64,000 nucleotides of DNA from Deinococcus sp. (GTDB lineage: Bacteria; Deinococcota; Deinococci; Deinococcales; Deinococcaceae): positions 1,920,001-1,984,000 of the forward strand of contig OZ253375.1 in assembly GCA_965261005.1 (NCBI GenBank). Reading direction: 5' to 3'. The notes under the pieces were generated by a model. The model was not told where the DNA came from and searched no databases. It was given only the letters and a program-made list of their open reading frames with translations. Below, in pieces: positions 10,653-12,111 of this stretch. The position numbers were made by a program, and so were the translations under genes. Position 1 is the first letter of the stretch, and each line of letters opens with the position of its first letter.

Positions 10653-10768
10653 GGCGCGCGGTTACACCCTCATACGGATTCCGCTTCATTTCGTACAGTC
10701 GAGAACAGCACTCGCCTGTACTCCATGCCGCAAAACCCGTATCTTTTTCCTATCCGCTTGTATGTTGG

Positions 10769-10930
10769 TTTTGGGACGAGGGGCGGTAGACCGTTCATTC
10801 GCAGGATGCTTGACATCGGAGCGGAGCTTATGGGTCACCGCCTCTTCCCGCCACGTCACAAGCACGAACCGTTGCCCGAACTTCGAGTTCGCATCCACAA
10901 GCGTGTGCTCGACTTGGCCGTCCCGAAAGG
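10769..10930 (+). ncRNA. Predicted bridge RNA of the IS110 element
   Basis: Two stem-loops with internal loops carrying target guides (CATTCGC, AGCGGAGC) and donor guides (ACCGTTGC, ACAAGC). Confidence 0.85.
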
Positions 10931-10937
10931 AAGCACC

Positions 10938-11894
10938 ATGACGACCAGCGAAGTGTTCGTCGGCATTGACGTCAGCAAAGCCCGACTCGATATCTGCACC
11001 CTGCCCGACGCGCAGGTGTGGGCCGTTCCCAACACGCCAGCCGGACAGACAGCCCTGGTCACACGCCTGCTCGGCCTGACCCCCAGTTTGATCGCGCTCG
11101 AAGCGACCGGCGGACTGGAACGTCCGGCTGCCAGCGCTCTGCAAGCGGCCGGATTGCCCGTCGCCGTTCTCAATCCCCGGCAAGTGCGCGAGTTCGCCCG
11201 CGCCACCGGACGCCTCGCCAAAACCGACGTCTTGGATGCCCAGTTGCTGGCCCGCTTTGCCGGCGCCGTCCGGCCAGCGGTGCGCGCCCTGCCTAGCCCC
11301 GAACGACGCGCCCTCGACGCTTTGCTGACCCGTCGCCGGCAAGTGCTCGACATCCTCACAGAAGAACGCCAGCGCGCGGCCAGCTGTCAAGATGACTTGG
11401 TGCGTGGCGACCTGGCCGACCACATCGCCTTTCTGGACGGGCGCCTCAAGCAACTCGACGCGCAACTGCACCAGACCGTGCAAGCCGTAGATGAATGGCG
11501 TGAAGACTACGCGGTGCTGACCAGCGTGCCGGGGGTGGGACCGGTATTGGCGCTCAGCTTGCTGGCCAAAGTGCCCGAACTGGGGATGGTGTCGGCCAAG
11601 CAGCTCAGCAGCCTGATCGGGGTGGCGCCGATCAACGCCGACAGCGGCAGCAAGCGTGGACGACGACGTGTGTGGGGCGGGCGGGCGGAGGTGCGGCGGG
11701 TCCTCTACATGGCTTGTATTTCGGCGGTGCGCTGTAACCCGGTCCTGCGGATGTTTTACGAGCGACTCGTGCAGCGCGGCAAACCGAGAAAGCTCGCCTT
11801 GGTGGCGTGTATGCGCAAACTACTCACCATGCTGAACGCCATGGTCAAGAGCAAACAGCCATGGCAAGCACAGCTGTGTCAACAGGCCGCTTGA
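10938..11894 (+). CDS. IS110-family DEDD recombinase
   Basis: [37 protein letters not shown] (catalytic Ser). Confidence 0.95.
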
Positions 11895-12111
11895 GCTGCC
11901 CGCTCTCCAAGGGAGCGTTCAGCGTACCGAGACGCCCGCTGCACAGCAGCGAGCGGCGCAGTACGCTGAACGTGACCAACCTCGTGCTGCCTGTGGGCGG
12001 CCTTGGAGACGCCTCGCGTACTTCCTCAGAGGTTGGTCCCCTCTTGACAAGAGACACCGTTGCTCCGCTAGAAAAATTTCCGACGAGGTCCAGAAATTTT
12101 CGGAATTCGTA

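Follow-up and report, generated by a model that had tools for sequence, protein, structure and literature searches.

We analyzed a 64,000-nt stretch of contig OZ253375.1 of Deinococcus sp. (assembly GCA_965261005.1; a genome of two contigs, 3.27 Mb), referred to below as the window. It carries on its plus strand a 1306-bp insertion sequence (IS) of the IS110 family at positions 10759 to 12064, the core dinucleotide CT being counted at the right end (12063-12064). Comparing this sequence with its genomic copies and its orthologues, we conclude that it is very probably a recently active, IS621-like element that moves by bridge-RNA-guided recombination. The IS621 bridge-RNA architecture, which an earlier sequence-only reading of the window had recognized in the element, is supported by the domains of the recombinase, the CT core, a two-loop RNA, the recognition of this RNA by a covariance model derived from orthologues (R1), and covariation between guides and flanking DNA.

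Five copies of the IS were found in the genome, 99.3 to 99.8% identical (1297 to 1304 of 1306 positions), and a genome-wide search for other IS110-family transposases found none beyond these copies. In the window, the left flank ends with CTATCCG-CT (10750-10758) and the right end of the element with ACCGTTG-CT (12056-12064), after which the flank resumes with CCGCT (12065-12069). The same junctions (...CG-CT / TGTATG ... CCGTTG-CT / CCGCT) were seen in all five copies, in a single orientation relative to the surrounding repeat. These are the ends expected of the IS110 group: the CT core is present at each junction, terminal inverted repeats are lacking, nothing is duplicated beyond the core, and the insertion is orientation-specific. 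The sequence-only reading had named different ends or unrelated targets in other copies as findings that would speak against it; the ends proved identical in five of five copies and the targets repeat-borne, and the reading was not refuted. The donor that it had reconstructed, ACCGTTG-CT-TGTAT, matches both the ends of the element and the words of the donor loop.

In assembled public sequencing data, the IS appeared as a 1315-nt contig (10755-12069) at a depth of 208.6, compared to about 35 to 40 for the flanking contigs; the two runs concerned belong to one study, are contig-level data, in which neither a junction nor an RNA end can be seen and no joint between right and left ends appeared, and come from a sample that may be the assembly's own source. 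A search of plasmid DNA returned no close copy, the best place covering 24% of the element at 67% identity, and a DNA search of E. coli genomes with the element gave no match.

All five insertions lie at the same central site, and in the same orientation, of a diverged host repeat of about 138 nt. This repeat has terminal inverted repeats and resembles a miniature inverted-repeat transposable element (MITE) or a repetitive extragenic palindromic (REP) element. It is represented by 56 nhmmer rows genome-wide, 30 of which are uninterrupted across the site. Around the window copy, the left half of the repeat occupies positions 10672 to 10758 on the plus strand (nhmmer C1:1930672-1930757, model positions 1-86, and flank alignment) and ends with the left target CTATCCG (10750-10756) and the core CT (10757-10758). 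The right half lies at 12065 to 12114 on the same strand (nhmmer C1:1932060-1932114), starting with CCGCT and continuing into a hairpin. The left target in use is CCATCCG in three copies, CTATCCG in the window copy and CCACTCG in one, and CT-CCGCT follows in all five; the consensus target at the repeat centre is YYCAYYCG-CT-CCGCT. The target that the sequence-only reading had reconstructed, CTATCCG-CT-CCGCT, is correct for the window copy but is not the commonest form, which is CCATCCG-CT-CCGCT. Its proposal that the target belongs to a host repeat was borne out, as the one repeat family that holds all five copies also carries unoccupied 14-mers identical to occupied sites: CCATCCGCTCCGCT and CTATCCGCTCCGCT were each found unoccupied three times, all six within repeats, for an expected 0.024 occurrences per word. 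Among the 30 uninterrupted repeats, the site reads G-CT-CCGCT in 13 and has CG instead of the CT core in 9 (as counted from the listing). Requiring Watson-Crick or wobble pairs at no fewer than 7 of 8 left-guide positions and at each of the 7 core and right-target positions, we found 51 pairable sites genome-wide.

Since the repeat around each copy has terminal inverted repeats and might itself be mobile, one could argue that a single insertion was spread passively by the mobility of the repeat, by recombination or by gene conversion, with no RNA guidance. We consider this highly improbable. While the IS bodies agree at 1297 to 1304 of 1306 positions, their flanks are alike at just 23 to 43 of 59 to 60 positions on the left and 19 to 46 of 50 on the right, and because the flanks are far less alike than the bodies, the copies are separate insertions rather than one insertion carried around. 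Moreover, one of them (copy D) lies in a second repeat subfamily, whose central motif is the sole part shared with the first, and the left targets vary among copies (CCATCCG, CTATCCG and CCACTCG) whereas the IS ends are identical. The motif of this second subfamily, CTACTCGCTCCGCT, was found 10 times, and 9 of these occurrences are not covered by the profile of the first repeat.

We then turned to the RNA predicted to guide these insertions. From 55 fetched orthologous loci (28 to 61% identity over the best tblastn segment), one representative was kept for each of 19 element families, the remaining loci being either additional copies from genomes already represented or matches that were short and distant. 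The consensus fold of the 20 aligned left ends (RNAalifold) consists of two stem-loops, in each of which there is a large internal loop, and compensatory changes are seen in 16 of its 22 pairs. R1, built from the 19 orthologues with the window left out, matched the window at 10776 to 10910 on the plus strand over model positions 1 to 131 of 131 (67 bits, E 2e-13; E-values are rough owing to a short calibration), the next match in the 64 kb having an E-value of only 0.28. This interval represents the core of the predicted bridge RNA with its two modules. The target-binding module (10779-10845) has a stem of 10779-10787 and 10789-10792 with 10833-10845 and an upper hairpin at about 10804-10818. 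The donor-binding module (10862-10908) is closed by a GCAC/GUGC stem (10862-10865 with 10905-10908) and contains a hairpin of 10877-10882 with 10886-10891. The target-loop stem proposed in the sequence-only reading was recovered as 10779-10792 with 10833-10845, both in the minimum free energy fold and in the alignment to the covariance model.

R1 also matched three other genomic copies at 67 bits each, and copy E, which is damaged, in two pieces only. It gave 58.6 bits on a Deinococcus plasmid orthologue and 22.9 bits (E 3e-4) directly upstream of an E. coli plasmid gene annotated as "IS110-like element IS621 family transposase", a locus found through a protein search of plasmids; this last match is full length, on the correct strand and places the loop words in the same columns as those of the window. 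Within the element, R1 matched the left end (179 nt) only, and no match was found in the right end (170 nt). Rfam returned no family on the plus strand of the left end at E-values up to 1. The left end as a whole folds only mildly more stably than its shuffles (z -1.95; 9 of 200 shuffles), and for this reason we did not use single-sequence fold energy as evidence. A stem closing the RNA at its 5' and 3' sides (10773-10778 with 10919-10924) is present in the minimum free energy fold but missing from the orthologue consensus, and we do not claim it.

All the words listed in the sequence-only reading are found at the places it gave: CATTCGC (10796-10802), AGCGGAGC (10820-10827), ACCGTTGC (10868-10875), ACAAGC (10897-10902), TTGACA and TATGTT. 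When the 179-nt left end was shuffled 200000 times at the mononucleotide level, CATTCGC, AGCGGAG, ACCGTTGC and ACAAG occurred singly in 2333, 2849, 724 and 21195 shuffles, respectively, while all four in order occurred in none. In the two loops of IS621, bottom-strand DNA is paired by the 5' side and top-strand DNA by the 3' side, which is its complement (PMC11208160). The loop words of the window follow the same strand logic, with 5' sides in top-strand sense and 3' sides complementary to the top strand.

Alignment with the orthologues allowed us to define the extent of the individual guides, all on the plus strand. The left target guide, which the sequence-only reading had located correctly as CATTCGC, extends in the orthologue register to UUCAUUCGC (10794-10802) and requires 1 to 3 rU.dG wobbles; the next base, A10803, stands opposite the core T and cannot pair. 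The right target guide, GAGCGG followed by AG (10819-10826), is complementary to the top strand of CT-CCGCT(C). Across elements, the sixth base of the right flank is usually mismatched, and the right target is therefore 5 nt long, as had been noted from the window. In the donor loop, the left donor guide ACCGUUGC (10868-10875) is the same as ACCGTTG of the right end plus the core C, and C10876 is unpairable opposite the core T. Both left guides extend only to the first core base. The right donor guide, placed by the orthologue alignment, reads CAU-CC-ACAAG (10892-10901); ACAAG is complementary to CT-TGT, and pairing of CAU with the ATG that comes next in the left end is conceivable, provided that the two C residues bulge out.

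The match between guides and DNA is specific to each element. For the right guides, 4.76 of 5 positions matched the right flank of the same element and 1.39 the flanks of other elements (17 elements with a full right flank), a result reached in 0 of 10000 permutations. Similarly, the exact run of the left guide ending at the core C was 5.2 nt long against the element's own target and 2.03 nt against others (20 elements; 0 of 10000 permutations). In 18 of 20 elements, the word of the left donor guide plus CT was found again a short distance past the gene; of the two misses, one is due to a contig end and the other to an element that was not found.

These patterns bear on the idea that recognition is due to protein only, the loop words being subterminal protein-binding repeats that merely resemble the flanks. 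In its favor, the donor-side words are nearly constant among orthologues (ACAGTTG-CT-TGTAT), as one would expect of a protein site. The target-side words, by contrast, differ in almost every orthologue and track the element's own flanks on the strand required for RNA-DNA pairing, also where wobbles are involved. The stems enclosing the words likewise keep their pairing through compensatory changes, and the handshake bases discussed below covary with position 7 of the other DNA. We therefore give protein-only recognition very little credence and retain RNA-guided recombination as the explanation.

In IS621, handshake guides are formed by the bases immediately 3' of each AG, which pair with positions 6 and 7 of the other DNA after strand exchange (PMC11208158). 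In the window, the corresponding bases are C and U at 10827 to 10828 in the target loop, of which the C pairs with position 7 of the donor (G), and C and G at 10902 to 10903 in the donor loop, which are complementary to target positions 6 and 7 (CG); both pairs lie on the plus strand. The target-loop handshake base forms a Watson-Crick pair with donor position 7 in all 18 elements with a mapped right end, including a C-to-U change where the donor has an A. For the donor-loop base and target position 7, we counted 17 Watson-Crick pairs, 1 wobble and 2 mismatches in 20 elements; a C at this position is confined to the window element, whose target has a G, and elements with an A in the target have a U. 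The final C of AGCGGAGC and of ACAAGC, which the sequence-only reading had placed correctly but counted among the guide bases, thus occupies a handshake-guide position. That reading also fits these two bases, because target and donor share a G at position 7. Only this element and one other of the 20 have the same base at position 7 in target and donor.

The recombinase gene lies at 10938 to 11894 on the plus strand and encodes 318 amino acids plus a stop. The protein contains PF01548 (residues 8 to 148, 69.2 bits for a cut-off of 29, E 4.5e-19) and PF02371 (residues 192 to 275, 70.7 bits for a cut-off of 21.3, E 1.4e-19). Its residues 7 to 312 align with the solved IS621 transposase (E 7.3e-40) and, as the best match to a solved structure, with the ISCro4 transposase (PDB 9t56, E 5.1e-41). 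The catalytic positions are D11, E55, D97, D100 and S236-G237, which align with the IS621 motifs GID, EATG, KTDxxDA and SGS; the corresponding residues of IS621 are D11, E60, D102, D105 and S241, followed by G242 (PMC11208158), the numbering of the IS621 PDB chain carrying a small offset. Identity to IS621 is about 33% at the protein level (tblastn). In a search of 5.8 billion proteins, 7998 of 8000 scored candidates had an E-value below 1e-30, and the nearest relative among these candidates was 76% identical and the next 63%. A longer open reading frame (ORF) from 10725 was rejected as the gene start, since it begins outside the element and the orthologues favor the ATG at 10938.

The two ends of the element would together form a promoter. 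The right end (11895-12064, plus strand) carries a -35 box, TTGACA (12044-12049), ahead of the left donor ACCGTTG (12056-12062) and the core CT (12063-12064), and the left end carries a -10 box, TATGTT (10761-10766, plus strand), in a sequence with which the orthologues start likewise, TTGTAT(C/G)TT. Joining the ends places the two boxes 17 bp apart, 15 nt from the right end (12050-12064) and 2 nt from the left end (10759-10760), which is the spacing given in the sequence-only reading. The integrated copy has CGTATC as its hexamer at the -35 position, and a sigma-70-type promoter is thus predicted to form solely at the junction of right end and left end (RE-LE junction), with an RNA start near 10773.

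The right end itself is unusual in its length of 170 nt, compared to 20 to 45 nt in most orthologues, and in its structure, as seen from its fold and its self-inverted matches. Its predicted folding energy is -82.7 kcal/mol (z -4.4), a stability that none of 200 shuffles reached. It contains a long hairpin at 11916 to 11972 with imperfect arms in two copies (that of the window and E) and perfect arms in two others (C and D), the loop of copy D being inverted (reverse complement). No T-run follows this hairpin.

Not all the data fit bridge-RNA-guided movement equally well, and the following observations weigh against it. The left guide is exact at no occupied site, with 5 to 6 Watson-Crick pairs, 2 to 3 wobbles and 0 to 1 mismatch over 9 positions. 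Writing W for Watson-Crick and w for wobble, UUCAUUCGC pairs with CCCATCCGC (copies B and E) as wwWWWwWWW, that is, with 6 Watson-Crick pairs and 3 rU.dG wobbles, and with the target of the window copy as ww.WWwWWW (5 Watson-Crick pairs, 3 wobbles and 1 mismatch). A genome-wide search for an exact match to the left target guide found none. The second core base is unpaired at the left target guide (A opposite A), and the IS621 screens, as reported, gave low mismatch tolerance. The G at position 7 common to target and donor means that the handshake bases can also pair with their cognate DNA, and in IS621, pairing engineered to be cognate only blocked strand exchange (PMC11208158). The target loop is not preceded by the 5' stem-loop for which structural conservation among IS110 bridge RNAs has been described; only about 11 nt separate the -10 box from the first stem. 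The E-values of R1 are rough and its match to the IS621-family locus is weak. Finally, one copy (E) is damaged by an insertion in the RNA and by D11E in its recombinase.

Some of these points find an answer in related elements. ISPpu10 is described as having a U.G wobble at this interface and as tolerating changes at distal left-guide positions, and a G.T wobble is described for IS621 (10.64898/2026.03.19.712850); because of these reports, the imperfect match of the left guide is probably no problem. Removing the 5' stem-loop of IS621 lowered RNA binding and lowered recombination slightly, making it an accessory feature (PMC11208158). In our alignment, 3 of the 20 left ends (those of the window, L037 and L032) do not have the extra 20 to 50 nt found at the 5' side.

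Copy E (C1:2002103-2003510) and the wobbles of the left guide could also be taken as signs of a decaying relic, with a left-end RNA that has ceased to be produced or to function and copies that are remains of earlier activity. This copy carries a unique, GAAC-flanked insertion of 66 to 70 bp just 5' of the left donor guide, together with D11E and a G-to-T substitution close to the predicted start of the RNA; a search of the rest of the genome for the insertion gave no full copy, only partial matches of 22 to 33 nt. With both D11E and an insertion in its RNA region, copy E is probably crippled. The other four copies are 99.5 to 99.8% identical, have open reading frames and retain all catalytic residues, three of them encoding an identical protein and one A148V, and their RNA scores 67 bits against the orthologue model. 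Given also the reports that left-guide wobbles are tolerated in ISPpu10 and IS621 (10.64898/2026.03.19.712850), we regard a relic as improbable, if somewhat less so than passive spread or protein-only recognition, and keep to a recently active element.

The same peculiarities may also be viewed in another way. It is conceivable, although we put this forward only tentatively and think it rather unlikely, that the element has a naturally minimal and loose bridge RNA, with a core of about 135 nt lacking the 5' stem-loop, a wobble-degenerate left guide and a GCT shared by target and donor. If so, the U residues of the guide at the four C/T-variable positions would read YYCAYYCG through rU.dG pairs and could address several variants in two repeat subfamilies. 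The shared GCT would let both handshake bases pair before as well as after exchange, and insertion and excision could be unusually symmetric.

The anatomy, the covariation and the five insertions at cognate sites come from the present analysis; the course of events from excision to resolution is modeled on the IS621 literature. The element would excise as a circle, and the RE-LE junction, by joining TTGACA and TATGTT over 17 bp, would drive transcription of an RNA of about 135 to 150 nt. The target loop would then bind the repeat, UUCAUUCGC with the bottom strand and GAGCGGAG with the top strand, and the donor loop would bind the circle junction. A recombinase tetramer would cut after CT using S236 and the DEDD site, and the exchanged strands would be held by the handshake bases C10827 and C10902-G10903. 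Resolution of the Holliday junction would yield a scarless, orientation-specific insertion.

Compared to IS621 of E. coli as described in PMC11208160 and PMC11208158, the element shares the DEDD RuvC-like domain and the Tnp domain with its Ser-Gly catalytic loop, the CT core, the -35 box of the right end and the -10 box of the left end that are joined in the circle, and an RNA in the left end with the target loop preceding the donor loop. It also shares the strand logic of the loops, the handshake bases 3' of each AG, the 7+2+5 target, a nearly identical right donor (TGTAT) and insertion into repeated extragenic elements. It differs from IS621, whose bridge RNA is 177 nt long (PMC11208160, PMC11208158), by its low protein identity (about 33%), the missing 5' stem-loop and its other target and left donor words. 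Further differences are the 170-nt right end with a long hairpin, the IS110 group being described with short right ends, the second core base, which is unpaired in both left guides, and the G at position 7 in target and donor.

ISPpu10 and ISPpu9 of Pseudomonas putida (10.64898/2026.03.19.712850, PMC12288879) are likewise described as multi-copy elements, each lying in a repeated intergenic element beside a hairpin, and the left guide of ISPpu10 also includes a U.G wobble, with distal left-guide positions reported to be tolerant. However, the targets of ISPpu10 are identical and have a GC-rich 5' stem-loop, whereas here four Y positions vary and the hairpin lies 3' of the site (four of five). 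With ISCro4, the likeness (PDB 9t56) is one of protein alone. The IS1111 group with its seekRNA has the same recombinase family and is RNA guided as well, but it is described with a short left end, a long, RNA-bearing right end and long subterminal inverted repeats (PMC11208160). On all its defining sequence-level features, the element is a member of the IS110 group and not of the IS1111 group, because its RNA lies in the left end.

Bridge RNAs have already been predicted for thousands of IS110 elements (PMC11208160), and the present one leaves the known picture of the family unchanged; it is an ordinary but very cleanly readable member. Bridge recombinases are mined as programmable tools for DNA insertion, inversion and excision, and the element, which the sequence-only reading had put forward as a candidate programmable recombinase, may be considered as such. 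It offers a complete natural example within one genome, with a recombinase, an RNA, a donor, five used targets and several unused ones. The missing 5' stem-loop, the wobble-rich left guide and the shared GCT are local features that may bear on efficiency and specificity. To the host, the element represents an active source of rearrangements among repeats.

Several further observations concern the host repeat. The window holds two more repeats, at about 44659-44818 and at 45487-45566, and one of them carries, without an insertion, the 14-mer of the most frequently occupied target, CCATCCGCTCCGCT (45507-45520). A strong DNA hairpin begins 3 to 6 nt past the core at four of the five occupied sites (DNA fold). 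The stem sequence of this right-half hairpin (for example, 12065-12119) varies by subfamily while its pairing is retained, and it recalls the target stem-loop of ISPpu10, yet on the opposite side of the site. In addition, three repeats (C1:2599767-2599970, C1:1894532-1894734 and C1:1069786-1069986) carry related short inserts of about 66 bp at the same central site, and the repeat at C2:7490-7687 carries a different insert of about 77 bp exactly between GCT and CCGCT; the genome-wide search revealed no second IS110-family transposase that might account for these inserts.

On the minus strand of the left end, Rfam sX15 (RF02234), the sole family to recur, matched at full length in the window (10765-10927, 26.9 bits) and in 4 of 16 orthologue loci (L036 1329-1482, L033 205-358, L047 1340-1464 and L037 1351-1500; 31 to 44 bits), all of these scores lying below the gathering score of 55. 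sX15 was absent from a truncated Xanthomonas IS110 locus in which it was sought. Xanthomonas sX15 and asX7 are described as complementary plasmid RNAs, with 10 homologues in Stenotrophomonas (PMC3300014), and they may represent an IS110 left end read on both strands.

Upstream of the element, a tRNA-Lys gene (CTT; 10535-10610, minus strand) lies about 60 nt from the IS-bearing repeat. Beyond it, a 92-amino-acid ORF (10152-10430, plus strand) reads, by its translation, like the C-terminal end of a tyrosine integrase; this looks like the remnant of an island at the tRNA. Farther upstream, an ORF of 1128 amino acids (6440-9826, plus strand) contains in its translation an NPPY motif, as known from adenine DNA methyltransferases.

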